DNA from: Rhodobacter capsulatus SB 1003
GTDB lineage: Bacteria > Pseudomonadota > Alphaproteobacteria > Rhodobacterales > Rhodobacteraceae
Length of the DNA stretch: 32,000 nt
Direction: 5' to 3'
NCBI RefSeq assembly: GCF_000021865.1
Contig: NC_014034.1
Span: forward strand, 1,440,001 to 1,472,000
Below the pieces are notes generated by a model. It was not told the origin of the DNA. It made no database searches and saw only the letters and a program-made list of their open reading frames with translations. Positions 7,231-31,634 of this stretch are shown here, one piece after another; the stretch's first letter is position 1; every line of letters starts with the position of its first letter. Both the position numbers and the translations under genes were made by a program.

Positions 7231-7254
7231 CCAACCCAAATCCGCCTCCGGCAA

Positions 7255-13271: not shown

Positions 13272-13559
13272 ATGATGACGCGGAAAGAGGCTGACGTGAC
13301 AGACGACACAGTGCTGACCCTTGCGATCCCGGCCGATCTGACCATGGCCGACGCCGAAGCGTGCCGCCAGCGCCTTCTTGGCCTTCTTGCCGAGGGGGAG
13401 GGGGCGGTTCTGGTGCGATTTGAGGGCGAGGAACGCCTCGGCGTGGTGGCGATGCAACTGGCGCTGGCCGCCGTGGCCGCCGCCGATGCCGCGGGGCGGT
13501 CTGCACGGGTCGATGACGCCAGCCGCGATGCGCTCGAACAACTTGGATGGGAAGGCTGA
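13272..13559 (+). CDS. STAS-domain protein, first gene of the che operon (CheS/CheX-like accessory protein)
   Basis: 95 aa with an anti-sigma-antagonist-like pattern (LTLAIPADLTMADAEACRQRLLGLL...VLVRFEGEERLGVVAMQLALAA). Its position before cheY-cheA matches alphaproteobacterial che clusters. Confidence 0.6.
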   Translation: MMTRKEADVTDDTVLTLAIPADLTMADAEACRQRLLGLLAEGEGAVLVRFEGEERLGVVAMQLALAAVAAADAAGRSARVDDASRDALEQLGWEG

Positions 13560-13561
13560 GG

Positions 13562-13927
13562 ATGGCGAAAACGGTACTGACGATCGATGACAGCAAGGCG
13601 ATCCGCGACATGGTCTCCTTCACCCTCTCCGGGGTGGGCTACCGCGTGGTGGAGGCCGAAAACGGACTGGAGGGGCTGGCCAAGCTGAAAAGCGAGCCGG
13701 TGTCGCTGGTCGTGGTCGACCTCAACATGCCGGTGATGAACGGTTTCGAGTTCATTCGCAAGGCCCGGCAGGAGCCGAAGGGGTCGGGCGTGCCGATCCT
13801 GATGCTGACGACCGAGACGAAGCCCGAGGCGAAGGCCGAGGGCAAGGCGCTTGGCGCCACAGGCTGGCTGAACAAGCCTTTCGATGCCGCCATGCTGGTT
13901 GCCGTCGCGCGCAAGCTGGCCGGTTGA
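13562..13927 (+). CDS. cheY: chemotaxis response regulator CheY
   Basis: MAKTVLTIDDSKAIRDMV...VVDLNMPVMNGFEFIRK...ILMLTTE...GATGWLNKPF is a receiver domain. GGAAGG lies 8 nt upstream of ATG 13562; an alternative start is 13547. Confidence 0.9.
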   Translation: MAKTVLTIDDSKAIRDMVSFTLSGVGYRVVEAENGLEGLAKLKSEPVSLVVVDLNMPVMNGFEFIRKARQEPKGSGVPILMLTTETKPEAKAEGKALGATGWLNKPFDAAMLVAVARKLAG

Positions 13928-13946
13928 CGGACAGAAGGGACATCCG

Positions 13947-15938
13947 ATGAACCCCGCCGCCCAGAGTTACATTCACGAAGCCCGGGATCTGCTGACGCAG
14001 CTCGAGCAGATGCTGCTCGATCTCGAGACCGAGGCCTCGCCCGAGGCGATCGACTCGGTCTTTCGGGCCCTGCACACGCTCAAGGGCGGGGGGTCGATGT
14101 TCGGCTTTCCGGCCCTGTCCGCCTTCGTGCACCATTTCGAAGACGCTTTCGACCGCGTGCGCGAGGGCAAGATCGGCATTTCCAAGCCGCTGCTCGATGC
14201 GGCGCTGGAAGGCCGCGATCATGTGATCGCCCTGCTCGATGCCGGGGGCGACGAGGCCGCGACGGCAGAGCTGGTCGGCTCGGATCAGGCGCGGCGGATT
14301 CTGGCCGCGCTGGAAGGCGCCGTGGCCGGGGCCCCGCCCGCGGTGGTGCGCCTTGCCCGCTGGGAAGTGTCGTTCCGCCCCTCGAAAGGCGCTTTGCGCT
14401 GCGGCATGCGCCCGGATCTTTTGCTGGGGGAACTGCGTGACCTTGGCGCCTGCCGGGTCCGCTGCGATGTCTCCGACCTGCCGGCGCTGGAAAATCTGGA
14501 TCCGACGCAATCGCATCTGGGCTGGGTGGTCGAGCTGACGACGGCGCAGCCGCGTGCGGCGATCGAGTCGGTCTTCGTCTTTGCCGATGATGCCGATCCG
14601 CGCATCGTCGCCCTGGATCAGGAAGAGACCGCCGCCCCGGCCGCGCCGGTGGCGCAGCCCGCGGCCGAGACCCCCGCCGCCGCGGCCCCGACGCCTGCCG
14701 CCCCGACGTCGGCTCCGGCAGCGGCCCCGGCCCCGGCCCGTTCCGCACCGCGCGCCCAGACGATGGCGGGGCAGGACACCGTGCGCGTGCCCTCGGCCAA
14801 GCTCGATTCGATCCTCGACCAGCTCGGCGAGCTGGTGATCGCCCAGGCCCGGCTGAACCAGACCGCGGCGCGGCTGGGCGATTCGACGCTCGAAGGTCTG
14901 GTCGAAGAGGTGCATCGGCTGGTCACCGGCCTGCGTGACACCACGCTCTCGGTGCGGATGCTGCCGATCGAGACAGTTTTCGGCAAGTTCCGCCGCGTGG
15001 TCCGCGATCTGTCGACCGAACTGGGCAAGGATGTGGTGCTGGTCACCGACGGCGGCGAGACCGAGATCGACAAGAACGTGCTCGACCGGCTCAGCGAGCC
15101 TTTGGTGCACATGATCCGCAACTCGGCCGATCACGGCATCGAATCGGCGGCCGATCGTCTGGCAGCGGGCAAACCGGCGCAGGGCCGGGTGCGGCTGGCC
15201 GCGTCGCAGGATGCGGGCGAGATCGTCATCGTGATCGAGGACGACGGCCGCGGACTGGATCACGAAAAGATCCGGCTGAAGGCGATCGAACGCGGTCTGC
15301 TGGCCGCCGATGCCCGCCCGAGCGACTCGGCGCTGGCGCAGATGATCTTCGCGCCCGGCTTTTCCACCGCCGACAAGGTCTCGTCGGTCTCTGGCCGCGG
15401 CGTCGGCATGGATGCCGTCCTGTCGGCCATCACCGGGCTGCGCGGCACCGTCGAGGTGACCTCGCGCAAGGGCGAGGGCACGCGGCTGACGCTGCGCCTG
15501 CCGCTCAGCCTGGCGATCATCGACGGGCTGCTGGTGCGGCTGGGCCCCGATGTCTTCGTGCTGCCGCTGATCGCGGTCGAGGAATGCGTCGAATTCGACG
15601 TCACCGAACTGACGCGCAACAGCGGCCGGCGCATGCTGCGGATCCGCGAGCATCTGGTGCCCTTCGTCGATCTGGCCGATGCGCTGGAAGGCACGGTCGA
15701 AAACGACGGCCGCCGCCGCGTGGTGATCGTGCGCGCCGAGGGCGAACGGATGGGGCTCGTGGTCGATGACATCCTTGGCCAGCACCAGACGGTGATCAAG
15801 CCGATGAGCGCCTATCACGCCGATCTTGATGATTTCGCCGGGGCGACGATCCTCGCCGATGGCACGGTGGCGCTGATCCTGGATGTGGCGATGCTGCTGC
15901 GGCGTCTGGGCGGCATCAACATCGGCCTTGCGGCCTGA
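13947..15938 (+). CDS. cheA: chemotaxis histidine kinase CheA
   Basis: Contains HPt (FRALHTLKGGGSMFGF), an Ala/Pro linker, a dimerisation domain, HATPase (HMIRNSADHGIE...DDGRGLD...GRGVGMDAV) and a C-terminal CheW-like domain. The start is at MNPAAQSY, after GAAGGGA. Confidence 0.92.
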   Translation: MNPAAQSYIHEARDLLTQLEQMLLDLETEASPEAIDSVFRALHTLKGGGSMFGFPALSAFVHHFEDAFDRVREGKIGISKPLLDAALEGRDHVIALLDAGGDEAATAELVGSDQARRILAALEGAVAGAPPAVVRLARWEVSFRPSKGALRCGMRPDLLLGELRDLGACRVRCDVSDLPALENLDPTQSHLGWVVELTTAQPRAAIESVFVFADDADPRIVALDQEETAAPAAPVAQPAAETPAAAAPTPAAPTSAPAAAPAPARSAPRAQTMAGQDTVRVPSAKLDSILDQLGELVIAQARLNQTAARLGDSTLEGLVEEVHRLVTGLRDTTLSVRMLPIETVFGKFRRVVRDLSTELGKDVVLVTDGGETEIDKNVLDRLSEPLVHMIRNSADHGIESAADRLAAGKPAQGRVRLAASQDAGEIVIVIEDDGRGLDHEKIRLKAIERGLLAADARPSDSALAQMIFAPGFSTADKVSSVSGRGVGMDAVLSAITGLRGTVEVTSRKGEGTRLTLRLPLSLAIIDGLLVRLGPDVFVLPLIAVEECVEFDVTELTRNSGRRMLRIREHLVPFVDLADALEGTVENDGRRRVVIVRAEGERMGLVVDDILGQHQTVIKPMSAYHADLDDFAGATILADGTVALILDVAMLLRRLGGINIGLAA

Positions 15939-15949
15939 GGAGACCCCGG

Positions 15950-16432
15950 ATGACACATTCTTCCGCCGCGACCGTCCTTGCCGAGGACGAGACCAACTCC
16001 ATCGCCCTGATCATCCGCGTCTGCGGCGAGGCGCTGGCGATCCCGGTCACCCATGTGCACGAGGTCATCGACCCGATCCCGCGCACCCGGGTGCCCCGCG
16101 CCTCGGCCTTCGCGCCCTGGCTGATCAACGTGCGCGGCGCCGTGGTGCCGCTGGTCGATGTCCGGCAACGGCTGCGGATGCCGGTGCATGCCACCAACGA
16201 AGGCCGGGTGGTGGTGCTCGACATCACCCTTGGCGCCGAGTCCTTCCGCCTCGCCATGCTGGCCGACGAGGTCCAGGAAGTCGTCGACATCGATCCCTCC
16301 GCGATCGAATCGCTGCCGGAAAACGGCTCTCCCTGGCCTTCCAACTATGTCACCGGCGCGCTTCGGCGCGGCGACGACCTCATTCTCCTTCTCGATCCCG
16401 AAAACCTCTTCCGTCCCGAACAGGCGGCTTGA
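15950..16432 (+). CDS. cheW: chemotaxis coupling protein CheW
   Basis: 160 aa, single CheW domain (ALAIPVTHVHEVIDP...LINVRGAVVPLVDVRQRL). Confidence 0.9.
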   Translation: MTHSSAATVLAEDETNSIALIIRVCGEALAIPVTHVHEVIDPIPRTRVPRASAFAPWLINVRGAVVPLVDVRQRLRMPVHATNEGRVVVLDITLGAESFRLAMLADEVQEVVDIDPSAIESLPENGSPWPSNYVTGALRRGDDLILLLDPENLFRPEQAA

Positions 16433-16453
16433 ACCGAACAAAGTGAGACGACC

Positions 16454-18646
16454 ATGAAGCTGACGATCAAGATCAAGCTGATGGCCACCTTCGGGTTGGT
16501 CCTCATCATGCTGACAGCCATTTCCTGGATAGGGCTGTCCTCTCTGAAATCCTCGAACGCCGATGCGAACCGGATGGCCAATGTGCAGGCGCGCATCCAG
16601 ACGCTTTCGGTGATGCTGAAGGACAGCTACGCGAATTCCGACATCAAGACGCTGCAGCATATCTCCACGGATACCGATGCCGCCATGCAGGCGCTGGAAG
16701 ACGGCATCGCCGCGGATCGGGCCGAGCGGACGAAGATCGTCGAGGAGATGCGCGCGCTTGACGAAGGGACCCTCGGGCAGGAGCTGACTGCGCTTGATGC
16801 GCAGGTGAAACTGGTGGCCGAGACCCGCAACGAACTGCTGGACCTCTCGCGTCAGGCGACGGTGTCGAAGGCCAAGGCGCTTTTCATGGGGCCGTCCTAC
16901 GATGATCTGACGAAAATGGATGGGGCGATCGACACCTTGCAGGAGGTCGTGGCCCGGGCGCCGGTGCTGCCGGTTCCCGCCGATGTGGCGAAAATGCAGG
17001 TCATGGAAGTCGAGCGCGCGATCATGGAAGTCGCGACGATGAATGCGCTTGCGATCATGGACAGCAGCGACGAGGGCACGGCCGCGAAGCTGGGCCAGGT
17101 CGAGAAGCTGCGCGCCGAACTGTCGGCCGACATGGACGAGCTGGACACGATGCTGGGCGCGCGTTTCCCGGCCGAGGTGGATGCGATCAAGGCCGTCGTC
17201 GCGGATTACCTCTCGATCAATGATGATCTCGAGAAGCTGACCCTCGCCAATTCCGAAGGCAAGGCCGCCGTCATCATGCAGGGCAGGATGAAGGACCAGC
17301 TTGCGCAGCTCTATGCGCAGCTCGACAAGGTCTCGCAGGTTGCCAGTGCCGCGATGATGGCGTCGCAAGAGCAGCTGAACGCCAGCTACAACAATAGCAA
17401 GACCCTGATCCTGACGATTTCGGGCATTGCGGTTCTGGGCTCGCTGATTGCCGCGACGCTGATCCTGATCGGCATCACCCGGGGCATGAACCGTGCTGTC
17501 AGCGTCGCCCGCAAGGTCGCCGAAGGGGATCTGAAGGTCGATACCCGCGTCACCTCGAAGGACGAGATCGGCGAGCTGATGCAGGCGCTGGGCGAGATGA
17601 CCGTGGCGCTCGACGGCATGGCCAATGTGGCCGAATCGATCTCGCGCGGGGATCTGACGGTGTCGATCAAGCGTCGCTCGGAGGCCGACACGCTTGGCAT
17701 CGCGCTCGAAGCGATGATCGGCAAGCTGCAGGAAATCGTGATCGACATGCATGTGTCGTCGCAAAGCGTCTCGGCCGGGGCCCATGCGATGAGCGCGACC
17801 GCCGAGGATCTGTCCTCGGGCTCGACCGAACAGGCGGCGGCGGCGGAACAGGCCAGCTCGGCGATGGAAGAGATGACGGCGAACATTCGTCAATCGGCCG
17901 ACAATGCCGCGCAGACCGAAAAGATCGCCACCCAGGCTTCGAGCCGCGCGATCGACACCGGCAAGGCGGTGGACGAGGCGGTCGGCGCGATGAAGACGAT
18001 CGCCGACAAGATCACCATCATCCAGGAAATCGCCCGTCAGACCGATCTTCTGGCGCTGAACGCGGCGGTGGAAGCGGCGCGGGCGGGTCAGCATGGCCGC
18101 GGCTTCGCGGTGGTGGCCTCGGAGGTGCGCAAGCTGGCCGAACGCAGCCAGCAGGCGGCGCGCGAGATCAACGAATTGTCGAGCCGCTCGGTCGAGGTCA
18201 GCCGCAATGCCGGCGACATGCTGGGCGAGCTGGTCCCGGCGATCCAGCGCACCGCCGATCTGGTGCAGGAGATCTCGGCCGCGATGCGCGAGCAGAACAC
18301 CGGCGCCGACCAGATCAACCTGGCGATCCGTCAGCTCGACACGGTGATCCAGCGCAACGCCTCGGCCTCGACCGAAGCCGCTTCGGTCTCCGAGGAGCTG
18401 GCGAGCCAGTCCGAGCAGCTGCATGACGTGATCGGCTTCTTCAAGGTGCAGGGCGAGCCCGGCCGGTCCGACCGCGCCGAACGCGCCAAGGATGCCGCCT
18501 GGGCGCGCACCGCGCGGCAGGAGGCCCCGGCCGCGGCCCCGGCCAGCCGTCGCAAGACGCGCGTGGCGGCGGGCACCCGCAACGGCGGCTTCGCCCTTGA
18601 TCTGTCGGAAGACGACGTGGACGATTCCGACTTCGAGAAGATCTGA
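16454..18646 (+). CDS. transmembrane methyl-accepting chemotaxis protein with a large helical periplasmic domain, HAMP and MA domains
   Basis: 730 aa. TM1 is [17 protein letters not shown], followed by a periplasmic region of about 300 aa and TM2 [24 protein letters not shown]. It also has a HAMP domain and the conserved tip [37 protein letters not shown]. Confidence 0.92.
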
Positions 18647-18753
18647 CACCGGGGCTTTGCCCGATGCGCTGTCCGGCCCCCGCAAGGGCCGGGCAGGCTT
18701 CCTCCGGGCGGCCGGACCGCCGGGAATTTTTCAGAAACGAAAGGGACCTCCGG

Positions 18754-19290
18754 ATGACTGCCGCCCCGCTTCTCAAGGAATCGTCGCAGTTTGGCCACCC
18801 GGTCGAAGCCGAAGTGGTCGAACCGCGGCGGGCTTACGTGACCTTCGACATCGGCAACCAGATCCTGGCGGCCGATGTGGCGGATGTCCGCGAGATCCTC
18901 GACCATCAGGTGATTGCCCCGCTGCCCAATGCCACGGCGGCGCTGCTGGGCATGATCGACCTGCGCGGCGAAGGCATCGCGGTGATGGACATCGCGCTGT
19001 CGCTCGGCCTGTCGCGGCAGGTCGATGACCGCAACGGCCGGATCATCGTCCTCGACCTGCAGACCGACCGCGAGGCGGCGATCGCCATCGTCGTCGACCG
19101 GGTGCGCACCGTGGTCGAGGTCGACGAGGCCGAGGTCGATCCGGTGCCCTCGGTGCCGGGGGGCTGGAACGCCGGGGCGATGTTCGGGCTGACCCGGGTC
19201 GAGGGGGAGCTTGTCTACATGATCGACCTGCGCGCGGCGCTTGGCCAGTCGGACTCGGCGGCCTTGCCCGGGCCGTTCGACTTCGATTGA
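18754..19290 (+). CDS. cheW: second CheW-like coupling protein
   Basis: From MTAAPLLKES after AAAGGGA. The CheW domain is YVTFDIGNQILAADVADVREILD...LGMIDLRGEGIAVMDI. Confidence 0.85.
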   Translation: MTAAPLLKESSQFGHPVEAEVVEPRRAYVTFDIGNQILAADVADVREILDHQVIAPLPNATAALLGMIDLRGEGIAVMDIALSLGLSRQVDDRNGRIIVLDLQTDREAAIAIVVDRVRTVVEVDEAEVDPVPSVPGGWNAGAMFGLTRVEGELVYMIDLRAALGQSDSAALPGPFDFD

Positions 19291-20192
19291 GGGAGACGGC
19301 CTTGCGCGGACCCTCTGTGGCCTATGCCGACATGCTGACACAACCCGCGGTGCCGATGAGCACCGCGGCGGCGCGGGAACTCGTGACGATCCTGAAGGCG
19401 GAAGCCGGGATCCGGATCGATCCGTCGAACACGCAGTTCATCTCCTATCGGCTGGACCGGCGGGTGACGGCGCTCGGGCTGGACGATTACGATCAGTATC
19501 TTCTGCATCTGCAAAGCCCCGAGGGGCCCGCCGAAATCCAGCGGCTGGTGGAAAGCCTGGCGACCCACACCACCAGTTTCTTCCGCGAAAAGGCGCATTT
19601 CGACTGGCTCGACACGGTCGGCCTGCCGAAGCTGATCGAGGCCGGTGCCGGACGCGCGCATCCGCTTGTGGTCTGGAGCGCGGCCTGTTCTTCGGGGCTT
19701 GAACTCTGGTCGGCGGGGATCGTGCTGGACCGCTACAGCCACAAGGTGCAGGGCGGGCTGCGCTGGGGGCTGGTCGGCACCGACATTTCCGCCGCCATCC
19801 TGCGCAAGGCGCGGCTGGGCATCTATTCCTCGTCGGAACTCTCGGGGCTGTCGTTCGACCTGCGCTCGGACTATCTTCTGCGCTCGAAACCCGGGGCGCG
19901 GATCTCGCCGAAGCAGCGCGTCTACCGGATCGCTCCGGCGCTGCGCAACCGCGCGCATTTCAGCTCCGCCAACCTGCTCGGCAAACTCGAGGGGCAGGTG
20001 CCGCTTGCCGATGTGGTCTTCCTGCGCAACGTGCTGATCTATTTCACCGCCGAGGACCGGATCCGGGCGATCCGCAACGTCATGCAATGCTTGCGGCCGG
20101 GCGGTTACCTGCTGCTGGGCCATTCCGACAATCTGCGCAGCCTGCCCGAGGGGTTGACCCCCGCGGGCACGGCGGTTTTCCGAAAGGACTAG
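19287..20192 (+). CDS. cheR: chemotaxis protein methyltransferase CheR (start uncertain: TTG 19287/19302, ATG 19332 or 19354)
   Basis: ...FISYRLDRRVTALGLDDYDQYLLHL...THTTSFFREKAHFDWL...VWSAACSSGLELWS...FLRNVLIYF. It overlaps the cheW stop. Confidence 0.88.
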   Translation: MRETALRGPSVAYADMLTQPAVPMSTAAARELVTILKAEAGIRIDPSNTQFISYRLDRRVTALGLDDYDQYLLHLQSPEGPAEIQRLVESLATHTTSFFREKAHFDWLDTVGLPKLIEAGAGRAHPLVVWSAACSSGLELWSAGIVLDRYSHKVQGGLRWGLVGTDISAAILRKARLGIYSSSELSGLSFDLRSDYLLRSKPGARISPKQRVYRIAPALRNRAHFSSANLLGKLEGQVPLADVVFLRNVLIYFTAEDRIRAIRNVMQCLRPGGYLLLGHSDNLRSLPEGLTPAGTAVFRKD

Positions 20193-20195
20193 GTG

Positions 20196-21302
20196 ATGAC
20201 CGTGATGCCCGATCCGCATTCCACCCGCCGCCCGCCGGGCGACCGCCCGGTCCGGGTCTTCATCGTCGATGACAGCGCGGTGGTGCGGCAAGCCCTGACC
20301 GACATCATCGGCTCCGATCCGCGGCTCGAGGTGATGGCGACCGCCTCCGATCCCTTTGCCGCGGCCGAACGGCTGAAATCCATGGTGCCCGATGTCATCA
20401 TCCTGGATGTCGAGATGCCGCGGATGGACGGGCTGACCTTCCTGCGCAAGCTGATGGCGCAGCATCCGCTGCCGGTGGTGATCTGCTCCTCGCTCGTCTC
20501 CGACCGGTCCGAGACCTATCTGGCCGCGATGTCGGCGGGGGCGGTCGACGTGATCGCCAAGCCCGAGATCGGGGTGAAGCAGTATATTTCCGAAAGCGCG
20601 CAGCGGATTCGCGACGTTCTGGTGCAGGCGGCTTCGGCCAAGGTGCAGCCGATGCGCGAACGGCCGGTGCAGCCCAAGCTCAGCGCCGATGCGATGCTGG
20701 CGCCGCCGCGCGAAAGCGGCGCGATGCTGCGCACGACCGAAAAGATCGTGGCGATCGGTGCCTCGACCGGCGGCACCGAGGCTTTGCGCGAATTGCTGCA
20801 GGCGATGCCGTCCGACTGCCCGCCGATCGTGATCGTGCAGCACATGCCGGAACTCTTCACCGGGGCTTTCGCCAAGCGCCTTGACGGGCTTTGCGCGATC
20901 ACGGTGAGCGAAGCGAAACCGGGCGACCGGCTCTTGCGCGGCCATGCGCTGATCGCACCGGGCAACAAGCACACGCTTCTGGCCCGCAGCGGCGCGCAAT
21001 ATCATGTCGAGGTCCGCGACGGCCCGCTGGTGTCGCGCCACCGCCCCTCGGTCGATGTGCTGTTCCGCTCGGTCGCGCGGTTTGCCGGGCGCAATGCGGT
21101 GGGCGTGATCATGACCGGCATGGGCGACGACGGCGCCCGCGGCTTGCGCGAGATGCGCGACACCGGCGCCACCACGCTGGGCCAGGACGAGGAAAGCTGC
21201 GTCGTCTACGGCATGCCGAAAGAGGCGATGGCGCGCGGCGCCGTGGGCCAGGAAATGTCGCTTGGCCAGCTGCCCGCGGCGATCCTGCGCGCCTCTCGTT
21301 GA
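20196..21302 (+). CDS. cheB: chemotaxis response regulator protein-glutamate methylesterase CheB
   Basis: Receiver domain ([14 protein letters not shown]...[11 protein letters not shown]) plus methylesterase domain ([14 protein letters not shown]...IVQHMP...GMGDDGA). AAAGGA lies 7 nt upstream of ATG 20196. Confidence 0.92.
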
Positions 21303-21345
21303 TCCGGGGCGCTGATCCGGGGCCGCGCCGGACTTGATCCGGGGC
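21299..21345 (+). repeat. three direct copies of TGATCCGGGGC (21300, 21313, 21335)
   Basis: Read directly from the sequence. The first copy contains the cheB stop codon. The copies lie in the 155-nt gap before the FecR-like gene. Confidence 0.6.
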
Positions 21346-21457: not shown

Positions 21458-22063
21458 ATGACCATCAGCCGACGTCTTCTGCTGTCCTTGCCTGCGGCGC
21501 TTGCGCTGGCGCCCCGCGCTGCGCTGGCGCAGGCCGCGATCGGCACCACCCGGGCGCTGACCGGGCGGGCCAGCCTGACCCGGGCCGGCACAAGCGCCGA
21601 TCTGCATCAAAGCGATCCGCTGATGGAGGGGGACGAGATCGCGACCATGGCCGCCTCGACCGCGGCGCTGGAGCTGTTCACCGCGACGCGGATCACCCTT
21701 GGCCCCGAAACCCGCTTCACCCTTGATCGCTTCACCGCCGATCTGGGCGGGGTGGTCAGCATCGGCGGCGCGATGGTTTTCGACCGGCCCGAGGATCTGC
21801 CGAAACTCGATCTGACGGTGCAGGGCGCCTTTGCCCGCATCGGCGTGCGCGGCACGCGGTTCTTCTGCGGCCCGTCGAAAGGGGTTTACGGCATCTTCGT
21901 CGCACGCGGCCGCGTCGAGGTGGCGGCGGGGGGCGAGACCCGGCGTCTGGGACCGGGCGAGGGCGTCGACATCGCCCGCCCGGGGGCCGCGCCGGGCGCC
22001 GTCGCGCCGTGGAAAGCGCCGCGGATCGCCGCCGCCTTCGCCCTGGTCGGGCTCAGGCCCTGA
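21458..22063 (+). CDS. periplasmic FecR-domain protein with a Tat-type signal peptide
   Basis: MTISRRLLLSLPAALALAPRAALAQA (twin-Arg), then a FecR-like beta-rich domain (...GDEIATMAASTAALELFTATRITLGPETRFTL...RIGVRGTRFF...VARGRVEV). Confidence 0.7.
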   Translation: MTISRRLLLSLPAALALAPRAALAQAAIGTTRALTGRASLTRAGTSADLHQSDPLMEGDEIATMAASTAALELFTATRITLGPETRFTLDRFTADLGGVVSIGGAMVFDRPEDLPKLDLTVQGAFARIGVRGTRFFCGPSKGVYGIFVARGRVEVAAGGETRRLGPGEGVDIARPGAAPGAVAPWKAPRIAAAFALVGLRP

Positions 22064-23807
22064 GCGTGTAAAGGGCAAGCCGGCCGAAGCTGCGCAGCTC
22101 GGTCTCGCCCAGCGGCACAAGCCCCGGCACCCGCGCGCCCAGCGTCGGGCCGATGCAGATCCTTGTGCCCAGCGACTTGTTCGCCTCTTGCAGCCGCGCG
22201 GCGAGGTTCACCGCCACCCCATGCGCCGTGTAATCGATGCGGGTGCCGAAGCCGACATCGCCCAAGACCGCGGGGCCGCATTCGACACCAATCCGGGTCT
22301 TGCCGAAGCCGTTGTTTTCGCGGGCGAATACCTCTGTCGCGGCCAGAATCTCGGCGGCGCAGGCCAGCGCCGCCGCCTCGTGGCCGGGCTGATCCAGCGG
22401 GGCGTTGAACAGCGCATGCAGGCTGTCGCCGACAAGCTTGTCGATCATCCCGCCATGGCGCAGCACGATGGCGCAGGTGAGCGCGAAATAGGCGTCAAGC
22501 CGCGCCACCATCTCGACCGCGCCCATCGCCGAGGTGGCGGCGGAAAAGCCTTCGATATCAGTGAAAAGCGCCGTGACCTCGCGGGTTTCGCCGTCAAGCC
22601 GCATCAGCCGCGGTTGCGCGGCCAGTCGGCTGACAAGCGCGGGGGGCAGCAGTTGCCCCATGCGGTCGCGCAGCACCCGCTCGGCCCGGGCAAGGGCTGC
22701 GGCGCGGCCCAAAAGCGCGGTGAGCAGGATCAGCGCCAGCGCGGCGACGGGCAGGACCGGGTCGAGCAGCAGCCCGCCGCGGCCGAAAAACACCGCCGCC
22801 CCGGCCCAGAGCGCAGCCAAAGTCGCGGCCAGCGCCGCCGCGCGGGCGGGGCGCAGGCGCAGCAGCACGAGCAGCGTCAGAAGCCCCGCAAGGGTGACGA
22901 AACCGCCTTCCAGCGCCGGGGCCCAGCCCGGGCGATGCGGCAGCTGCCCCGACCGCAGCCCCGCCACCGCATCGGCAAGGATCTGCACCGAGGGCATCAC
23001 CGGGCTGGTCGCGCTGGGGCGCAGCCCGCCGCGCTCGGGCAGGCTCGATCCGATCAGCACCACGGCGTCTTCGGGCGGCAGTTCCTGCCCGGCCAGCACG
23101 GCGGCGGCGGGCAGGGTGCGGGCGGGCCAGTCCGCGGGGGCAGAGGCGGCAAAGCGCAGGCTGCCCGCCTCCAGCGCAAAGGTCCGGGCGCCAAGCCGCA
23201 GCCCGGCGGGGCCGATCAGCGGCAGCACGCCCTCGGCCCTTGCGGCGATGGCGACGGCAAGACCGGGCAGGGCCCGGCGCCCCACCTCTGCCGCGACCGG
23301 GACATGGCGCACGGTGGCATCCGCCCCGCCCATCAGCGCCATCACCGCCCAGTCGTGACCGGCAAGTTGCGGGCAGGGCGTCTCGGCCCCCGGCGCCTGC
23401 CAAAGCGGCAGCGGCCCGGTCAGGCCCAGCCGGGCGGGCGGCCGGGCCGGGCCGGGGGTGTCGGAAAGCAAAAGCCCCAGCACCGCGGGCTGACCCTGCA
23501 GCGCCGTGGCCAGATCGCGGGCGGGGGCGCCGTCGCAATCCCCCGCGATCAGCATGTCGAGGCCGATCACCCGCGGCTTCGCCTGCGCCAGCCGCGCCAC
23601 AAGCCGCGCCGTCGCCGCCCGGGTCCAGACCGCCCCGGTCTCGTCCCGGGCGCCGATGTCGATCACCACGATGCCGCGGCTTGCGGCCGGGCGGGGCAGG
23701 GGGGCGAAGATCCGCTCCTGCAGGCCCCGCACCGGCGCGGGCGGCCGCGCCAGCAACAGGCCAAGCGCGCCCGTCACCGCAAGGACCGCGCCGCGCCAGG
23801 CCATCAC
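22053..23807 (-). CDS. CHASE2-sensor class III adenylate/guanylate cyclase
   Basis: An N-terminal TM segment is followed by a periplasmic CHASE2 domain (IVVIDIGARDE...RVIGLDMLIAGDCDG) and 3 TM helices. The cyclase domain carries ALFTDIEGFS, KLVGDSLHALFNAP, RIGVECGPAVLGDVG and YTAHGVAVNLAARLQ. The start is GTG 23807 or ATG 23804, overlapping the crp-like stop. Confidence 0.88.
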   Translation of the reverse strand: MMAWRGAVLAVTGALGLLLARPPAPVRGLQERIFAPLPRPAASRGIVVIDIGARDETGAVWTRAATARLVARLAQAKPRVIGLDMLIAGDCDGAPARDLATALQGQPAVLGLLLSDTPGPARPPARLGLTGPLPLWQAPGAETPCPQLAGHDWAVMALMGGADATVRHVPVAAEVGRRALPGLAVAIAARAEGVLPLIGPAGLRLGARTFALEAGSLRFAASAPADWPARTLPAAAVLAGQELPPEDAVVLIGSSLPERGGLRPSATSPVMPSVQILADAVAGLRSGQLPHRPGWAPALEGGFVTLAGLLTLLVLLRLRPARAAALAATLAALWAGAAVFFGRGGLLLDPVLPVAALALILLTALLGRAAALARAERVLRDRMGQLLPPALVSRLAAQPRLMRLDGETREVTALFTDIEGFSAATSAMGAVEMVARLDAYFALTCAIVLRHGGMIDKLVGDSLHALFNAPLDQPGHEAAALACAAEILAATEVFARENNGFGKTRIGVECGPAVLGDVGFGTRIDYTAHGVAVNLAARLQEANKSLGTRICIGPTLGARVPGLVPLGETELRSFGRLALYTLRA

Positions 23808-24505
23808 GCCTCCGGCTCGGCGGCGGCCGAAAGCGCCACCGGATCAAGCGTCCAGGCCCCGTCCTGACGCAAGATCGCCCCCGCCGCCTCCAGCGCCTGC
23901 AGCGCCCGGTTGACCTTGGGACGGCTCGCGCCCAGCACCGCCGCCAGCTCCCCTTGCGAGATTTCCAGCCGCAAGACCGCCGTCGGCGGCAGATCGGGAC
24001 CGTTCAGCTGCCGCAGGCTGAACAGCAAAAACCGCGCCAGCCGGGCTTCCAGCTGATAAAGCGCGATGCCCTCCAGCTGCTCGGTCGTCTCGCGCAGGCG
24101 GCGGCAGAAATACCGCGCGACCGACAGCCCCAGCGCCGGATGCGCCCCGGCCAGTGCGGTGAACCGCGCCCGGTCGAGCACGAAGCCCGTCGTCGGTTGC
24201 ACCGCCGTCGCATCGGCCGAGCGCGGCTCGCCATCGACCAGCGCGAATTCGCCCAAGGTGTCGCCCGCCTCGGCATGGCGCAGGATCAGCTCGCGCCCGG
24301 CCGGGGCCAGCAGCGTCAGCTTCACCCGCCCCGCCGCCAGCGCCACCATCCAGTCGCCCGGATCGCCGCGCTGAAACAGCACCTCGCCCGGCTGCCACCG
24401 CTGTTGCCGCGCCCCCGCGGCCAGCGCCGCCAGCGCCGCCGCATCCAGCCCCTGAAACAGCGCGAAAGAGCGCCAGAACGCCGGTTTGCCCGCCAGATCC
24501 CGCAT
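23804..24505 (-). CDS. Crp/Fnr-family cNMP-binding transcriptional regulator (Clr-like)
   Basis: 233 aa from MRDLAGKPAFWRSFALFQGLD. It has a cNMP-binding domain (GEFALVDGEPRSADATAV) and a C-terminal HTH (SQGELAAVLGASRPKVNRALQALE). It is translationally coupled to the cyclase gene. Confidence 0.85.
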   Translation of the reverse strand: MRDLAGKPAFWRSFALFQGLDAAALAALAAGARQQRWQPGEVLFQRGDPGDWMVALAAGRVKLTLLAPAGRELILRHAEAGDTLGEFALVDGEPRSADATAVQPTTGFVLDRARFTALAGAHPALGLSVARYFCRRLRETTEQLEGIALYQLEARLARFLLFSLRQLNGPDLPPTAVLRLEISQGELAAVLGASRPKVNRALQALEAAGAILRQDGAWTLDPVALSAAAEPEA

Positions 24506-24561
24506 CTCAGGCCCCTTTCCCACCCGCCCATGCTGGCCGGGCCGGGGCCGTCTGGCAAGCC

Positions 24562-24577
24562 TGTTCCCTGCGGAACA
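24562..24577. promoter_or_regulatory. palindromic CRP/Clr-type box TGTTCCCTGCGGAACA
   Basis: TGTTCC-N4-GGAACA (TGT-N10-ACA geometry) lies in the 134-nt divergent region between the crp-like start (24505) and the RTX ATG (24640). It ends 63 nt upstream of the RTX start. Confidence 0.55.
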
Positions 24578-24639
24578 GCGCCGTCGCCCGCAACCGGGCA
24601 AGGTGAGCCCACGCAACCCCCAACCGAAAGGTTCCTTCC

Positions 24640-26463
24640 ATGTCGGACATCATCGGCACCAACGGCGCCAACAGCCTTGACGACGCCTTCTCCTTCGGCC
24701 TTCCCGGCTTTCGCAACGACCGCGTCGCGGCGCTGGGCGGCAATGACACGATCACCATCACCGACGGCAACGACACCGTCTTCGGCGGCACCGGCCATGA
24801 CCGCATCGTCGATGCGGCGCTGGCGGGCTTCGTCTCGGGCGATGACCAGATCTTCGGCGAGGCGGGCAATGACACGATCGTGGCGGGCGCGGGCCGCGAC
24901 ACGATCAACGGCGGCGCCGACAGCGACACCGTCGATTACAGCCGCTCGGAGGCGGCGATCACGGTCAACCTGGGGTCCGGCGCGGCGCAATCGGGCGGCC
25001 TGGCCGCGGGCGACCGGCTGATCAGCATCGAGAACGTGACCGCCAGCGGCTTCGGCGACCAGCTGATCGGCTCGGGCGTGGCCAACCGCCTTTTGGGCCT
25101 TGGCGGCAACGACCGGATCTCCGGCCTTGGCGGCAACGACCTGATCGATGGCGGCAGCGGCAATGACACGATCCTGGGCGGCACCGAGAATGACGGTCTG
25201 ACCGGGGGCAGCGGCAATGACCGGCTGTTTGGCGAGAGCGGCGCCGACACGCTGTCGGGCGGTGACGGGACCGACGCGCTCTCGGGTGGCACCGGCAACG
25301 ACCAGCTGGCGGGCGGCACCGGCAACGATCAGCTTGCGGGCGGCGAAAATGACGACCTTCTGTCCGGCGATGCGGGCAATGACGCGCTGTCGGGCGGGGC
25401 GGGCAATGACACGGTGGACGGCGGCAGCGGCAATGATGTCGTGCAGCTTGAAAGCCGCACGGAGGCCGACCGTCTGGAGGGCGGCGCCGGGATCGACACG
25501 CTCAGCTTCGCCAGCCTGCCCGCGGTCTTTCTGCCGCCCGGCGTCTTCAACGGCATCGATCTGGTCAGCGGGCGCAGCTTTGCCACCAGCTATCACGGCT
25601 TTGAAAATGTCCTCGGCTCCTCGGGCGCGGATGCGATTTCGGGCGATGCGCTGTCCAACCGGCTGGAGGGCGGCGCGGGCGGCGACCGGATCGACGGGCG
25701 CGCGGGCGCCGATGTGCTGGTCGGCGGCAGCGGCGCGGATACGCTGGCGGGCAGCGCCGGAGCGGACACGCTTTTTGGCGGCTCCGAGGGGGATCGGCTG
25801 TCGGGCGGCACCGAGGCGGACCGGCTGGAGGGCGAGGCCGGGGCCGACCGGGTCAGTGGCGATGCGGGCCATGACAGCGTTTTTGGCGGGCTCGACAATG
25901 ACACGCTGTCGGGCGGGACCGGGAATGATCTGCTCTCCGGCGGGTCCGGGGCGGATCTGGCGCGGGGCGATGCGGGCGATGACCGGGTCTTCGGCGACGG
26001 CGGGGCGGATGCGCTCTTCGGCGATGCGGGGGCGGATCAGCTTTCGGGCGGCACCGACAACGACCGGCTCGACGGCGGCAGCGAGAATGACCTGCTGCGC
26101 GGCGAGGACGGCGCCGATGTGCTGATCGGCGGCACCGGGGCGGATACGATGGAGGGCGGCGCGGGGGCGGACACCTTCGTCTTTCTGACCACGGCCGATT
26201 CGCTCAATTCGGTGGGCGGCAGCGATCACATCACCCGTTTCGAGCTGGGCCAGGACCGGATCGACCTGTCGGCGCTGGCGCCCGGGGCAGAGTTCCATCT
26301 GGCGCTGGTGGCCGATGGCGCCGGGGCGGTGGTGACGAATGTGGTCAATGGCGCGACGGTGGTCAGCGTCTTCACCGACGCCGATGCCGCCCCCGATCTG
26401 GTGTTCCAGATCGACGCGCTGGTCGGCACCGGCGGGCTGACCGAGGCCGACTTCCTGTTCTGA
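24640..26463 (+). CDS. RTX (hemolysin-type calcium-binding repeat) secreted protein
   Basis: 607 aa dominated by GGxGxDxL/I nonapeptides (GGSGNDTILGGTENDGLTGGSGNDRLFGESGADTLSGG...). It has an acidic C-terminal region plausibly serving as a T1SS signal. GAAAGG is the RBS. Confidence 0.88.
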   Translation: MSDIIGTNGANSLDDAFSFGLPGFRNDRVAALGGNDTITITDGNDTVFGGTGHDRIVDAALAGFVSGDDQIFGEAGNDTIVAGAGRDTINGGADSDTVDYSRSEAAITVNLGSGAAQSGGLAAGDRLISIENVTASGFGDQLIGSGVANRLLGLGGNDRISGLGGNDLIDGGSGNDTILGGTENDGLTGGSGNDRLFGESGADTLSGGDGTDALSGGTGNDQLAGGTGNDQLAGGENDDLLSGDAGNDALSGGAGNDTVDGGSGNDVVQLESRTEADRLEGGAGIDTLSFASLPAVFLPPGVFNGIDLVSGRSFATSYHGFENVLGSSGADAISGDALSNRLEGGAGGDRIDGRAGADVLVGGSGADTLAGSAGADTLFGGSEGDRLSGGTEADRLEGEAGADRVSGDAGHDSVFGGLDNDTLSGGTGNDLLSGGSGADLARGDAGDDRVFGDGGADALFGDAGADQLSGGTDNDRLDGGSENDLLRGEDGADVLIGGTGADTMEGGAGADTFVFLTTADSLNSVGGSDHITRFELGQDRIDLSALAPGAEFHLALVADGAGAVVTNVVNGATVVSVFTDADAAPDLVFQIDALVGTGGLTEADFLF

Positions 26464-28367: not shown

Positions 28368-29882
28368 TCAGGCCTGCGAGATCCGCAGCCCGGGCGCGGG
28401 GCCGCGCCCGCCCGGCTGCGCCCGGCCCTGCGGCTGCGGCGTCTCGGGCGGCGGGATGTCGTCGCCAGTGTCGGGGGCAGTGTCGGGGGCAGTGTCGGGC
28501 CGGGTTTCCTCGGCGGGGGCGATCGGCAGCAGAAGATGCATCGCCGTGCCCTCGGACGAGCTGTCGATGGTCAGAAGCCCGCCCGATTGCCGGGCGAATC
28601 CGTCCACCATGCTCAGCCCCAGCCCCGAGCCCTGACCCACCGCCTTGGTGGTGAAAAAGGGTTCGGTGACGCGGCGAATGATTTCGGGCGGGATGCCGCA
28701 GCCGGTATCGGCCACCGTCACCTCGGCGTAATCGCCCGCGGTCAGGATGGTGCCATCGGGCTGCACGTCGTCGGTGAACAGATGCACCGGCCGCGCCGAG
28801 ACCGTCAGCGTGCCGCCGCCCGGCATCGCATCGCGGGCGTTGACGACCAGATTGACCAGCGCGGTGATGAACTGGTTTTCATCCAGCGCCACCCAGAGCG
28901 GCGCCTGCGGCGCCTCGAAACTCTGGGTGATCGAGGCGGGCAGAAGCCGCCGCGTCAGCAGTTGCAGCTGTTCGAGCAGCGCGCCGACATCGCGCCGCGC
29001 GATCCGCATCTGCGTGCGCCGGGCATAGGCGAGCAGCTGCTTGACCAGTTCCGCCGCGCGCAGGGCCGCCGTCTTCGCCTCGGTCACCGCATTGAGCCGC
29101 TCGGCCTCGGTGTCCATGGCGTCGTAAAGATCGAGATTGCCGATCACTGCGGTCAGGATGTTGTTGAAATCATGGGCAACCCCGCCCGCAAGCTGGCCGA
29201 TCGCCTCCATCTTCTGGGCCTGGACCGAGCGCAGCGCGGCCCGTTCCGCCTCGATCCGGATGCGCCGATGCGCCAGCAGCGTCAGCGAGAAATAGACATG
29301 CAGCCCCGCCGCCGCCAGGACCGTGCCCAGAATCGCGCCGGGATGGTCAAGCTGCTGGATGGTGCGGAACACCACCCAGCCGATGGCCGCGCCGATCACC
29401 GCGATCTCGCCCAGCATGATCGCCAGCACCCGGTCCGAGCGATAGATCAGGAAGACGAGCATCGCCCCCATCCCCGCCGCGCCGCCGATGCGCAAGGCCG
29501 GGTCCGCGGTGGTGATCATCTCGGCGGGCAGCCAGATGAAGGCGGCGACCAGATACCAGAACACCGCCCCCGCAATCAGCACATCGCGGCGCGAGCAGAT
29601 CTCGCCACGGCTGCGCAGGAACAGGAAATGCACGATGTGCCCGAGGACCTGCGCCGCGATCCACCAGACCGCCATCAGGCTGTCGAGGTAGAAATGCAGC
29701 ACCACGCCCACGGAAAGGATCAGGCCGAAACGGAAGGCCGCATCAAGACGCCGGCCGTATTCGAGATCGAACAGGCGGTCGATTTCTTTGCGGCTGTCGA
29801 GGCCATCAATGTCGGACTGCTGACTTGCCAACACACCCACCTGCCCGATCGCTGCGGGCCGTTCCGCGCGGACTGCCCACAC
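28368..29882 (-). CDS. membrane-bound sensor histidine kinase (multi-TM N-terminus, HisKA + HATPase_c, no receiver domain)
   Basis: 504 aa with about 6 TM helices. The H-box is [19 protein letters not shown], with N-box LVVNARDAM and G-boxes DTGCGI and GSGLGLSMV. It has a Pro/Asp/Thr-rich tail. GTG start at 29882 (uncertain). Confidence 0.85.
28466..28501. repeat. 12-nt tandem repeat x3 (cagtgtcggggg) inside the kinase tail
   Basis: Read directly from the sequence. It encodes [12 protein letters not shown] on the minus strand. Confidence 0.8.
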
Positions 29883-30014: not shown

Positions 30015-31487
30015 TCAGTCGGGGCTGCCGGGCGGCTGGGCTTGCGGTTGCGGCGGCGGGGATGGCGGCGGCGGCGGTGGGGGCAGCGGCTCGGCCGGTT
30101 CGGCCAGACGGTCCTCGGCCCAGGTGCCGCCCGCGACCTTGCCCGAGGCATAGCGCATCACCCCCTTGCCCTGACGGCGGCCATGGACAAAGTTACCCTC
30201 GTAGACATCGCCATTGGCATAGATGGCCTTGCCCGGGCCGTCGATCTCGCCGTCGCGCCACATGCCGTCATAGGTGAAGCCGTCGGGCCGGATCAGCTTG
30301 CCAAGACCCGAGCGCTGCCCGGCCTCGAAGCCGCCCTCGTAGATCGTGCCGTCGGGATGAAGGGCGCGGCCGTGCCCCTGCCTTGTGCCGTCGGCCCAGT
30401 CGCCGTCATAGACATAGCCGTCCGGATAGGTCATCCGGCCCTTGCCATGCTGCCGGGCCTCCAGGAATTCGCCTTCATAAACAAGGCCGTTCGCATAGCG
30501 GGCAAGGCCCCGGCCGGCGATGTTGCCCGCGACCCAGCCGCCTTCGTAGCTGGCGCCGTCGGGATAGGTGATCCGGCCCTGGCCCTCGGGCATGTCGTTG
30601 CGGAACGCCCCCTCGTAGACCGAGCCGTCGGGGAATTGCGCCCGGCCGGTGCCCTCGATCCGGCCCTCGACCCAGCCGCCGGTATAATCATAGCCGTCGG
30701 CGCCGCGGAAATGGCCCTGACCCTGCGGCTTGTCGGCCAGAAACTCGCCCTCGTAAAGATCGCCGTTGGCATAGGTCACCCGGCCCTTGCCCTGCCGCTT
30801 GCCCGCCACCATCGCGCCCTCGTAGCGGTCGCCATTGGGCTGGAGCAGCACGCCCCGACCCTCCATCCGGCCGCCCTTCCAGTCGCCCTCATAGGTGACG
30901 CCGGTCTTCAGGATCAGCTTGCCGCGGCCCGCGCGCTGGCCGCCCGCCATCTCGCCTTCGTAGCGGGCGCCGTCCGGGTAGGTGATCTTGCCGCGGCCCT
31001 GTTTCACGCCCTGCACCCAGTCGCCCTCGTAGCGGTAGCCGTCCGGGCCGGTCAGCACGCCCGTGCCGTCATGCAGCGCATTGGCGAACCGGCCCTCGTA
31101 GCGGGTGCCGTTGGCATAAAGCGCGACGCCGGTGCCGGTGATTTCGCCCGCGACCCAGTCGCCCTCGTAGGTGCCGCCGTCGGGATAGGTGATCTTGCCG
31201 CGGCCATCGGGCTTGCCGCGGGTGAAATGGCCCTCGTAGATCGAGCCGTCGGGAAACCGTGCCCGGCCGTGACCGGCGATTTCGCCCGCCTGCCAGTCGC
31301 CTTCGTATTCATAGCCCGAGGGCAGGCGGTATTTGCCATGGCCGTCCTGCTTGCCGTCCTTGAACGTGCCCTCGTAGATGCCGCCGTCCTGATATTGCTT
31401 GGTCAGCACCTCCTCGGCCGGTGCCGCCGCCGCGGCGACAACCAGCGCCGCCGCCAGCATCAGCCCCCGCTTGCCCGCTTGCCCCAT
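30015..31487 (-). CDS. secreted MORN-repeat protein with a polyproline C-terminal tail
   Basis: Signal peptide MGQAGKRGLMLAAALVVAAAAAPA after AGGGGA. About 18 consecutive 23-aa MORN units follow (YEGxWxxGxxxGxGxxxxxxG). The tail is PLPPPPPPPSPPPQPQAQPPGSPD. Confidence 0.85.
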   Translation of the reverse strand: MGQAGKRGLMLAAALVVAAAAAPAEEVLTKQYQDGGIYEGTFKDGKQDGHGKYRLPSGYEYEGDWQAGEIAGHGRARFPDGSIYEGHFTRGKPDGRGKITYPDGGTYEGDWVAGEITGTGVALYANGTRYEGRFANALHDGTGVLTGPDGYRYEGDWVQGVKQGRGKITYPDGARYEGEMAGGQRAGRGKLILKTGVTYEGDWKGGRMEGRGVLLQPNGDRYEGAMVAGKRQGKGRVTYANGDLYEGEFLADKPQGQGHFRGADGYDYTGGWVEGRIEGTGRAQFPDGSVYEGAFRNDMPEGQGRITYPDGASYEGGWVAGNIAGRGLARYANGLVYEGEFLEARQHGKGRMTYPDGYVYDGDWADGTRQGHGRALHPDGTIYEGGFEAGQRSGLGKLIRPDGFTYDGMWRDGEIDGPGKAIYANGDVYEGNFVHGRRQGKGVMRYASGKVAGGTWAEDRLAEPAEPLPPPPPPPSPPPQPQAQPPGSPD

Positions 31488-31634
31488 GCTTTTCCCCTGA
31501 CTGATGGCCGATCGGCGCAAACCTAATGGCGTGCCAAAAGCGTGACAAGCGCCCGGCGGCCGCGGATTTCGCGCCCGGGTGCTTTTCCCCGCCCGCCCTT
31601 GGCGTTACATCAGGGGCAACAGACAGGATCCAGC

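Follow-up and report, generated by a model that had tools for sequence, protein, structure and literature searches.

A CyaD1/Clr-type cyclic AMP locus of Rhodobacter capsulatus and its probable RTX output

Do four neighbouring genes of Rhodobacter capsulatus SB 1003, which encode a FecR-like periplasmic protein, a membrane cyclase with a CHASE2 domain, a Crp-like regulator and an RTX protein, form one circuit in which cyclic AMP (cAMP) made at the membrane lets the regulator switch on the RTX gene? The genes lie in a stretch of 32,000 nucleotides (contig NC_014034.1, positions 1,440,001 to 1,472,000), which as a whole is termed the window in the following and from the first letter of which all positions are counted. 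An original prediction, made from the letters alone, had proposed here a self-contained cAMP circuit with the RTX gene as target. The analysis leads to the view that the locus is the R. capsulatus counterpart of the cyaD1 locus of Sinorhizobium meliloti, and probably a cAMP relay from the envelope to transcription with an RTX output. The predicted path from the CHASE2 cyclase through cAMP and the Crp-like regulator to the divergent RTX gene is supported by the comparative evidence.

Orthology with the cyaD1 locus of Sinorhizobium meliloti

All four genes carry the domains that had been assigned to them, as there is a Pfam match for each. The FecR-like gene (21458-22063, plus strand, 201 aa) matches PF04773 FecR with 25.7 bits at a cut-off of 24. 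On the minus strand lie the gene of the CyaD1-type cyclase (22053-23804, 583 aa; PF05226 CHASE2 with 80.7 bits, PF00211 Guanylate_cyc with 45.7 bits) and that of the regulator, a clr orthologue (23804-24505, 233 aa; cNMP_binding PF00027 with 66 bits, HTH_Crp_2 PF13545 with 46.5 bits), and the RTX gene follows on the plus strand (24640-26463, 607 aa; 17 HemolysinCabind stretches, 265 bits). The start codon of clr is the ATG at 24505, in agreement with public gene calls, the longest open reading frame opening at TTG 24616, and the intergenic spacer between clr and the RTX gene is 134 bp long. The coupling of the regulator and cyclase genes was described correctly, with the clr stop TGA (23806-23804) and the cyclase ATG (23804-23802) having one base in common (GCGTGATGG), and so was the convergent overlap of 11 nt in which the FecR-like gene and the cyclase gene meet at their 3' ends (22053-22063). 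The latter is implied by tblastn coordinates also in other R. capsulatus strains, and the corresponding overlap is 17 nt and 43 nt in Devosia and Paracoccus lichenicola. An identical FecR-like protein is encoded in complete R. capsulatus genomes, and the closest cyclase homologues come from R. capsulatus as well. A plasmid origin of the locus was considered and rejected, as a megablast search against a plasmid collection gave only one chance match of 45 bp; the locus is chromosomal.

In S. meliloti, the order at the locus is clr (smc02175, plus), cyaD1 (smc02176, plus), smc02177 (minus, with a FecR domain), smc02178 (plus) and spdA (plus) (Zou 2017, PMC5498481; Mathieu-Demaziere 2013, PMC4222275; Werel 2023, PMC10127613). 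The R. capsulatus proteins are identical to Clr in 48.7% of positions, to CyaD1 in 44.7% over 573 aa, and to SMc02177 in 44.8% over 174 aa, and by this sequence comparison the three regulatory genes are orthologues of clr, cyaD1 and smc02177 in the same order and orientation, whereas no homologues of smc02178 and spdA were found in the window. What had been proposed as a parallel with the CyaD1-Clr cascade thus goes beyond analogy to orthology plus synteny. Tian 2012 is reportedly a further source on the S. meliloti locus.

Against the protein structure database (PDB), the regulator aligns without gaps over residues 5-232 to 7pza, the Clr of S. meliloti (235.6 bits, E 5e-69), and the runner-up chain is a mycobacterial CRP with 86 bits, E. 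coli CAP reaching about 52 bits. Six residues of Clr are known to read bases (L152, Q184, S194, R195, K197 and N199; PMC10127613), and all six are identical in R. capsulatus, as is the helix ASRPKVNRA. Judged from these alignments, the regulator of the window is an orthologue of S. meliloti Clr, a Crp-like receptor for cyclic nucleotides that belongs to cluster G.

The cyclase has the build of a membrane receptor, the Pfam matches covering residues 40-309 (CHASE2) and 408-543 (Guanylate_cyc), and a hydropathy profile that shows an N-terminal transmembrane segment (1-19), about 270 periplasmic residues with CHASE2, a group of three helices (295-374) and, last, the catalytic domain. K456 (in IDKLVGD) and T526 (in DYTAHG) align with the adenine-specifying Lys and Thr of the adenylate cyclase CyaC, and D416, D460, K456, T526, N533 and R537 are invariant in 19 cyclase homologues. 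Since the metal-binding Asp residues, the Asn/Arg pair and the Lys/Thr pair are all conserved and the set of metal and transition-state residues is complete, the enzyme is predicted to be an active adenylate cyclase. That it makes cGMP, and that the circuit is a cGMP circuit, is very improbable: the top PDB sequence matches are indeed to Cya2 of Synechocystis, a guanylate cyclase, but Cya2 has Glu and Gly at both substrate-specifying positions, where the homologues invariably have Lys and Thr as in CyaC, and in 6fht, a Cya2 engineered into an adenylate cyclase, Lys stands at the first of these positions. One public assembly (L004, Logan SRR20276811) has lost 76 bp from the part of the gene that encodes CHASE2, equivalent to window positions 23085-23160, a deletion that splits the cyclase into open reading frames of 224 aa and 336 aa; it is otherwise identical to L001 in the cyclase region compared and, as read from its sequence, is a natural or laboratory loss-of-function variant.

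The Clr box, its promoters and the exported output

The original prediction had also placed a CRP-type box in the promoter region between the regulator and the RTX gene. A palindromic box is present there indeed, with perfect 6-bp arms and a 4-bp spacer (TGTTCCCTGCGGAACA, 24562-24577), but its type is that of Clr, and it does not follow TGTGA-N6-TCACA, the consensus of E. coli CRP. Published consensuses of the Clr box are TGTTN8AACA and HGTYHCNNNNGRWACW (PMC5498481), and the site has the cognate form GTNNCNNNNGNNAC / TGTTN8AACA. In the 32-kb window it is the sole match both to TGTTN8AACA, with 0.07 expected, and to HGTYHCNNNNGRWACW, with 0.16 expected, and when up to two mismatches to TGTTCC-N4-GGAACA are allowed, only one further site appears. 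Sites of FnrL (TTGAT-N4-ATCAA type) are unlike the box, and the papers on the FnrL and RegA regulons name other RTX genes.

A scan with the cyclase alignment, taking one genome per species, gave 80 alphaproteobacterial loci in which the neighbourhood of the cyclase can be compared. In 72 of the 80 species a FecR-like gene is the neighbour of the cyclase gene (tblastn plus profile search), clr is its neighbour in 58 of 80, and an RTX neighbour is confined to one clade. Three layouts dominate: clr, cya and a convergent FecR-like gene as in the window (33 loci), the FecR-like gene, clr and cya on one strand (layout b, 21 loci), and the FecR-like gene plus the cyclase with no clr (16 loci). The exact sequence TGTTCC-N4-GGAACA is about 12-fold denser in the module zones (23 in 343 kb) than outside of them (5 in 871 kb). 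With at most one mismatch, a box is found at 40 of the 58 loci that have clr versus 4 of the 22 that lack it (Fisher p ~9e-5). In the clr/RTX spacer, 13 of the 14 RTX-type loci have the box, and in an alignment of twelve such spacers from 12 species, which are only 52% identical on average, the box with two flanking bases per side is the only long invariant block.

In view of these numbers it is hardly credible that gene adjacency and box came together by coincidence, with no functional circuit behind them. It is true that the RTX adjacency is limited to one clade (Rhodobacter, Gemmobacter, Cypionkella and a few metagenome-assembled genomes), but the uniqueness of the box in the window, its invariance within a poorly conserved spacer, its co-occurrence with clr and the synteny of the core with an experimentally characterised S. 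meliloti locus all speak against a coincidence.

What stands behind the box varies, and the products are, by their sequences, nearly all exported. RTX-class genes are found behind boxes also in two other arrangements: in Paracoccus lichenicola such a gene (product of 421 aa) shares the strand of clr and lies upstream of it, and in a metagenome-assembled genome of the Rhodobacterales another one (product of 197 aa) diverges from the FecR-like gene. In Devosia, Pararhodobacter and Rhodobacter sp. Har01, the gene behind the box encodes a secreted SH3_3 protein (about 104 aa), and other box-linked genes encode a cupredoxin, an OmpA-like protein, SMc02178, small exported proteins, and the FecR-like protein itself. 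This mirrors the direct regulon of Clr in S. meliloti, in which small proteins with signal peptides are numerous (PMC10127613). The SH3_3 gene, the product of which has a signal peptide, is the commonest box-linked gene outside the RTX clade, with homologues in 17 loci, and is placed either divergently to clr or immediately 3' of the cyclase gene (L087 9938-10249; L088 6798-7112), and its sequence context makes it appear to be a conserved, so far uncharacterised Clr target. In P. lichenicola (L029/L089 6624-7231), a second box with one mismatch precedes the gene of a 146-aa membrane protein with a BTP domain (PF05232) that lies directly upstream of clr, separate from the box before the 421-aa RTX gene.

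The promoter elements were deduced from conservation, by printing the boxes with their downstream sequence in the direction of the target. At exactly 21 nt past the box, without gaps, there is a YAnnnT hexamer, and a cccAtcg-like motif follows 6-7 nt further on. This spacing is common to smc02178 of S. meliloti, the promoter of which is validated (TAGGAT), to RTX genes (CAAGGT, CAGAGT, CATGGT, CAATGT), to SH3 genes (TAGGGT, TAATCT, CATTGT) and to other box-linked genes. For the RTX gene of the window it yields a putative promoter core at 24599-24611 (plus strand), with the -10-like hexamer CAAGGT at 24599-24604 and A24611 as candidate start. The box centre would then be at -41.5, a class II position. 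In Clr-activated promoters of S. meliloti, the distance from site to start ranges from -42 to -76 (PMC10127613), and the deduced -41.5, which depends on a predicted start, was counted as fitting that range. There is no -35 element on the RTX side of the spacer. On the clr side, a conserved TTGCCA (24558-24553) and CAGCAT (24535-24530), separated by 17 nt, abut the box and are visible in the alignment as the blocks GGCAAG and CATGCTG; their conservation suggests that 24530-24558 (minus strand) is the basal promoter of the clr-cya operon and that it may be modulated by Clr.

The box could mainly serve the autoregulation of clr-cya, with the RTX gene as a mere bystander in the common spacer. For this speak the promoter-like element that abuts the box and the distance of the box centre to the clr start codon, which is 64.5 bp in R. 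capsulatus, fairly conserved, and 60-68 bp in most RTX-type loci. Several facts do not fit, however. S. meliloti has no box upstream of clr; the operons of layout b are mostly boxless at their 5' end and have the box just 3' of the cyclase, before a separate gene of an exported protein and with no clr promoter nearby, and therefore the box there serves the neighbouring gene and not autoregulation alone. Moreover, the 21-nt spacing to a -10-like hexamer is seen in the target direction only, whereas GC-rich hexamers are found at that offset in the direction of clr, and RTX genes stand behind boxes in two further arrangements as well. Autoregulation as the main role of the box is thus improbable, and it is more sensible to see in the RTX gene the target of Clr. 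In the analysis, gene content, orthology, the conservation of Clr-contact and catalytic residues, the uniqueness and conservation of the box and the fixed promoter geometry are established.

The RTX protein itself has tandem GGxGxD nonapeptide repeats, in 17 stretches with 265 bits. Its N-terminus (MSDIIGTNGANSLDD) is not hydrophobic and no signal peptide is apparent there, and the C-terminus ends with ...EADFLF. An acidic residue followed by hydrophobic residues is common at the C-terminus of type I secretion substrates. The protein stays below the cut-off of every NCBIfam family, and no enzymatic, catalytic or toxin domain was detected. Full-length orthologues with 46-90% identity are encoded divergently from clr in R. 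capsulatus, R. viridis, Gemmobacter, Cypionkella and some metagenome-assembled genomes. The RTX protein may be a protein of the surface or matrix, which would be in line with the envelope-oriented regulon of Clr in S. meliloti; the rhizobial Rap/Ply/ExpE1-like calcium-binding proteins belong to its comparison group. The circuit is supported, but to call it self-contained was too strong, as the window encodes no type I secretion system and Clr likely has further targets elsewhere in the R. capsulatus genome.

The FecR-like protein beside the CHASE2 cyclase

The FecR-like protein consists of a signal peptide and a FecR domain, with about 175 residues in the mature form. Its N-terminus MTISRRLLLSLPAALALAPRAALAQA has a twin-arginine motif in which, among 31 homologues, R5 is invariant and R6 is conserved in at least 90%, and this conservation supports the predicted export by the twin-arginine translocation (Tat) pathway. 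By sequence the protein has no match in the PDB. An AlphaFold 2 model based on the 31 homologues (pLDDT 85.6) is nearly all beta-strand, and its only significant neighbours in the PDB are the periplasmic C-terminal domain of PupR (6ovk) and the anti-sigma factor BDI_1681 (4m0h, 4m0n), the modelled fold matching them only partially with TM-scores of just 0.35-0.39. An identity as a FecR-type anti-sigma factor was rejected, as the protein has no cytoplasmic anti-sigma domain and no membrane anchor, and the neighbours searched included neither an extracytoplasmic function (ECF) sigma factor nor a TonB-dependent transducer.

Whether this protein has to do with the CHASE2 sensor was regarded as not established by the original prediction, and this holds for a physical or functional partnership, but not for the linkage of the genes, which is already known from the literature: SMc02177, the neighbour of CyaD1, was described earlier as a FecR-domain protein (PMC5498481), and FecR-domain genes beside CHASE2 genes have been noted in Campylobacterota (PMC9239204) and Burkholderia (PMC5192318). 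As the FecR-like/cyclase pair persists at loci that have no clr, a functional tie to the cyclase is the most economical reading, and from this gene association the FecR-like protein would most likely act on the CHASE2 domain, as its partner or modulator. A more specific idea is that the short, Tat-exported FecR-domain protein is an obligate periplasmic co-receptor of CHASE2 that relays a cue from the outer membrane or envelope, as FecR does from FecA. By analogy, NsrA of S. meliloti may then correspond to the outer-membrane component. We put this forward tentatively and would not bet on it, but if it were true, the triad of Clr, CyaD1 and FecR-like protein would be an ancient alphaproteobacterial form of cell-surface signalling that uses cAMP and not an ECF sigma factor, into which each lineage plugs its own exported output (RTX here, SH3_3 elsewhere, SMc02178 in rhizobia), and there would be a handle on what CHASE2 senses.

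The FecR-like protein might also be a downstream periplasmic effector, an output and not the input partner of CHASE2, the gene of which stays next to that of the cyclase solely for the sake of co-inheritance. In S. meliloti, smc02177 is Clr-activated and needed to keep secondary infection under control, and the smc02177 mutant still perceived the plant-extract signal (PMC5498481), which does not support an input role; that perception assay mostly reports the CyaK-dependent signal 1, however, whereas CyaD1 and CyaD2 respond to signal 1' (PMC7529298). In three loci a box with one mismatch is found upstream of the FecR-like gene, as it would be for an output, but no box is found upstream of the R. 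capsulatus gene even at 4 mismatches. Furthermore, the most conserved unit is the pair of FecR-like protein and CHASE2 cyclase, kept in 16 loci with no adjacent clr, of which 15 are boxless, and FecR-domain genes accompany CHASE2 also where the outputs are others, such as the histidine kinases of Burkholderia (PMC5192318). We thus regard an effector role as doubtful, and prefer a role as partner or modulator.

A mirror-tree test, in which the divergence of the FecR-like protein was tracked against CHASE2, the catalytic domain and Clr, gave pairwise correlations of 0.76-0.89 throughout and partial correlations of 0.24 (CHASE2), 0.29 (catalytic domain) and 0.49 (Clr). The FecR-like protein does not track CHASE2 any closer than it tracks the catalytic domain or Clr, so there is no specific excess for the pair, which speaks for an effector role and does not support the partnership; the result shows the co-inheritance of the unit and says nothing specific about a contact between FecR-like protein and CHASE2. 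Also the exceptions count against it. Eight loci have no adjacent FecR-like gene, three of them on short contigs. The other five truly lack it: a CHASE2 cyclase with no FecR-like gene within 8 kb is found in Gemmobacter caeni, in G. lutimaris and in three Pararhodobacter, and these loci (L015, L016, L073, L076, L078) retain clr and the RTX gene, or the SH3 gene. A reading of the Pararhodobacter cyclases as CHASE2-less, which would have explained the missing gene, was dropped, as Pfam found CHASE2 in them. The gene can be doubled as well, with two FecR-like genes at the module in L034, L038, L042, L051 and L075, mostly in tandem, and in Neotabrizicola a 1-mismatch box lies upstream of the first of the two copies.

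The relay, its surroundings and known systems

Put together, the locus would work as follows. A periplasmic or envelope cue would act on the CHASE2 membrane adenylate cyclase and thereby lead to cAMP; the cyclase and Clr would be co-translated from one operon; and Clr with cAMP, possibly also with cGMP, would bind to the single TGTTCC-N4-GGAACA box. Since the box would be at about -41.5 of a divergent RTX promoter that has no -35 element, Clr would act as a class II activator. The 607-aa calcium-binding repeat protein would be exported by a type I system that is encoded elsewhere and would probably remodel the cell surface or matrix, and the Tat-exported FecR-domain protein would act in the periplasm in the same pathway, most likely as the CHASE2 partner or modulator. 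We infer the synthesis of cAMP, the binding and activation by Clr, the secretion of the RTX protein and any contact of the FecR-like protein with CHASE2.

A number of points weigh against this relay. A scan of the clr/RTX spacer for consensus sigma-70 promoters found none in either direction, and CAAGGT is a weak -10-like hexamer. The box possibly serves for autoregulation of clr in addition to the control of RTX. Genes for type I secretion (ABC transporter, membrane fusion protein, TolC or another outer-membrane factor) were not found in the 32-kb window, the species counted are not phylogenetically independent, and a search of the R. capsulatus literature found nothing on this locus. With these points taken into account, we still regard the relay with its RTX output as probable.

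As far as can be read from the genomes, it is new how widely the module is conserved, that the exported output varies while the Clr promoter before it, putatively of class II, stays fixed, and that this output is RTX in the Rhodobacter/Gemmobacter clade. To our knowledge, the CyaD1/Clr cascade has so far been studied only as a device of legume symbiosis. That its three-gene core, its box and the geometry of its promoter recur in a free-living phototroph, and in genomes of Paracoccaceae, Devosia, Bosea and the Methylocella type, suggests a general envelope-signalling module, the local output gene of which has been swapped between lineages. R. capsulatus offers a simple genetic system with one box and one divergent reporter gene, the locus makes a test case for the partnership of FecR domain and CHASE2, and for the RTX protein, anonymous otherwise, there is now a concrete hypothesis on its regulation.

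The surroundings of the locus contain some further features. A complete chemotaxis operon on the strand of the FecR-like gene (13500-21302; CheY, CheA, CheW, methyl-accepting chemotaxis protein, CheW, CheR, CheB) ends 155 bp before the FecR-like gene, an adjacency seen in R. capsulatus and R. viridis only, and S. meliloti Clr is known to repress motility and chemotaxis genes (PMC5498481). Neither this operon nor the BTP-domain gene of P. lichenicola was accepted as a member of the module, both adjacencies being lineage-specific. The 155-bp gap upstream of the FecR-like gene contains three direct copies of TGATCCGGGGC at 21300-21345 (starts 21300, 21313 and 21335), beginning at the cheB stop codon, which are the sole copies in the window on both strands and could be a protein-binding array or the remnant of a repeat element. 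A 542-aa protein encoded upstream of the che operon (11445-13073, minus strand) has just a faint ATG17-like match with 24.6 bits versus a cut-off of 43 and no other annotation, and a frame at 6727-7407 (plus strand), with a weak integrase-core match (rve_3, 23.6 bits, below cut-off), is possibly a decayed insertion-sequence fragment. On the other side, a 501-aa protein with about 15 MORN repeats (30015-31520, minus strand, 317 bits) adjoins a membrane histidine kinase (28368-29882, minus strand), and public annotation gives neither of them a Pfam match.

Among known systems, the cyaD1 locus of S. meliloti is the closest, sharing the core genes and their order, the TGTTN8AACA type of box, the spacing from box to -10 and a local target that encodes an exported protein. 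The arrangement differs in detail: in S. meliloti, smc02177 and smc02178 flank the box (TGTTTCCCGCGGAACA), whereas in R. capsulatus it lies between clr and the RTX gene; clr and cya are 61 bp apart in S. meliloti and overlap in R. capsulatus (TGATG); the FecR-like and cyclase genes are 228 bp apart and overlap by 11 nt, respectively; and smc02177 is Clr-activated, whereas the R. capsulatus FecR-like gene has no Clr box. As R. capsulatus is a free-living phototroph, the plant-signal context of S. meliloti does not apply.

The likeness to CRP and CyaA of E. coli is more general. In both cases a regulator with a cNMP_binding domain and a helix-turn-helix acts, or in R. capsulatus would act, at a palindromic site in the class II-type position -41.5. 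E. coli CRP belongs to another Crp cluster, however, whereas the R. capsulatus protein is of cluster G (52 bits to CAP versus 235 to Clr), and the sites are TGTGA-N6-TCACA and TGTTCC-N4-GGAACA, respectively. E. coli CyaA is a class I cyclase and the R. capsulatus enzyme a class III receptor cyclase, and a global catabolite regulon in E. coli contrasts with what is probably a local, dedicated target in R. capsulatus. With serralysin-type RTX substrates of type I secretion, the R. capsulatus protein has in common the GGxGxD repeats, the apparent lack of an N-terminal signal peptide and the acidic-then-hydrophobic C-terminus, but there are no adjacent genes for an ABC transporter, a membrane fusion protein or TolC, and no enzymatic or toxin domain was detected.

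The FecA-FecR-FecI and PupB-PupR systems share with the locus the periplasmic FecR-domain fold (PF04773; matches to 6ovk and BDI_1681), but their FecR-type proteins have a cytoplasmic anti-sigma domain and an anchor, whereas the R. capsulatus protein has a Tat signal peptide. Nearer in this respect are clusters in Campylobacterota, with a CHASE2 cyclase, a phosphodiesterase, a FecR-domain protein and a TPR protein (PMC9239204), and in Burkholderia, with a BiofilmReg response regulator, a LysM-FecR protein and a CHASE2 histidine kinase (PMC5192318). They differ from the R. capsulatus locus in their outputs and accessories (histidine kinase, phosphodiesterase, TPR, LysM) and have neither Clr with its box nor an RTX target, but like in R. 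capsulatus, an exported FecR-domain protein is encoded beside the CHASE2 sensor.

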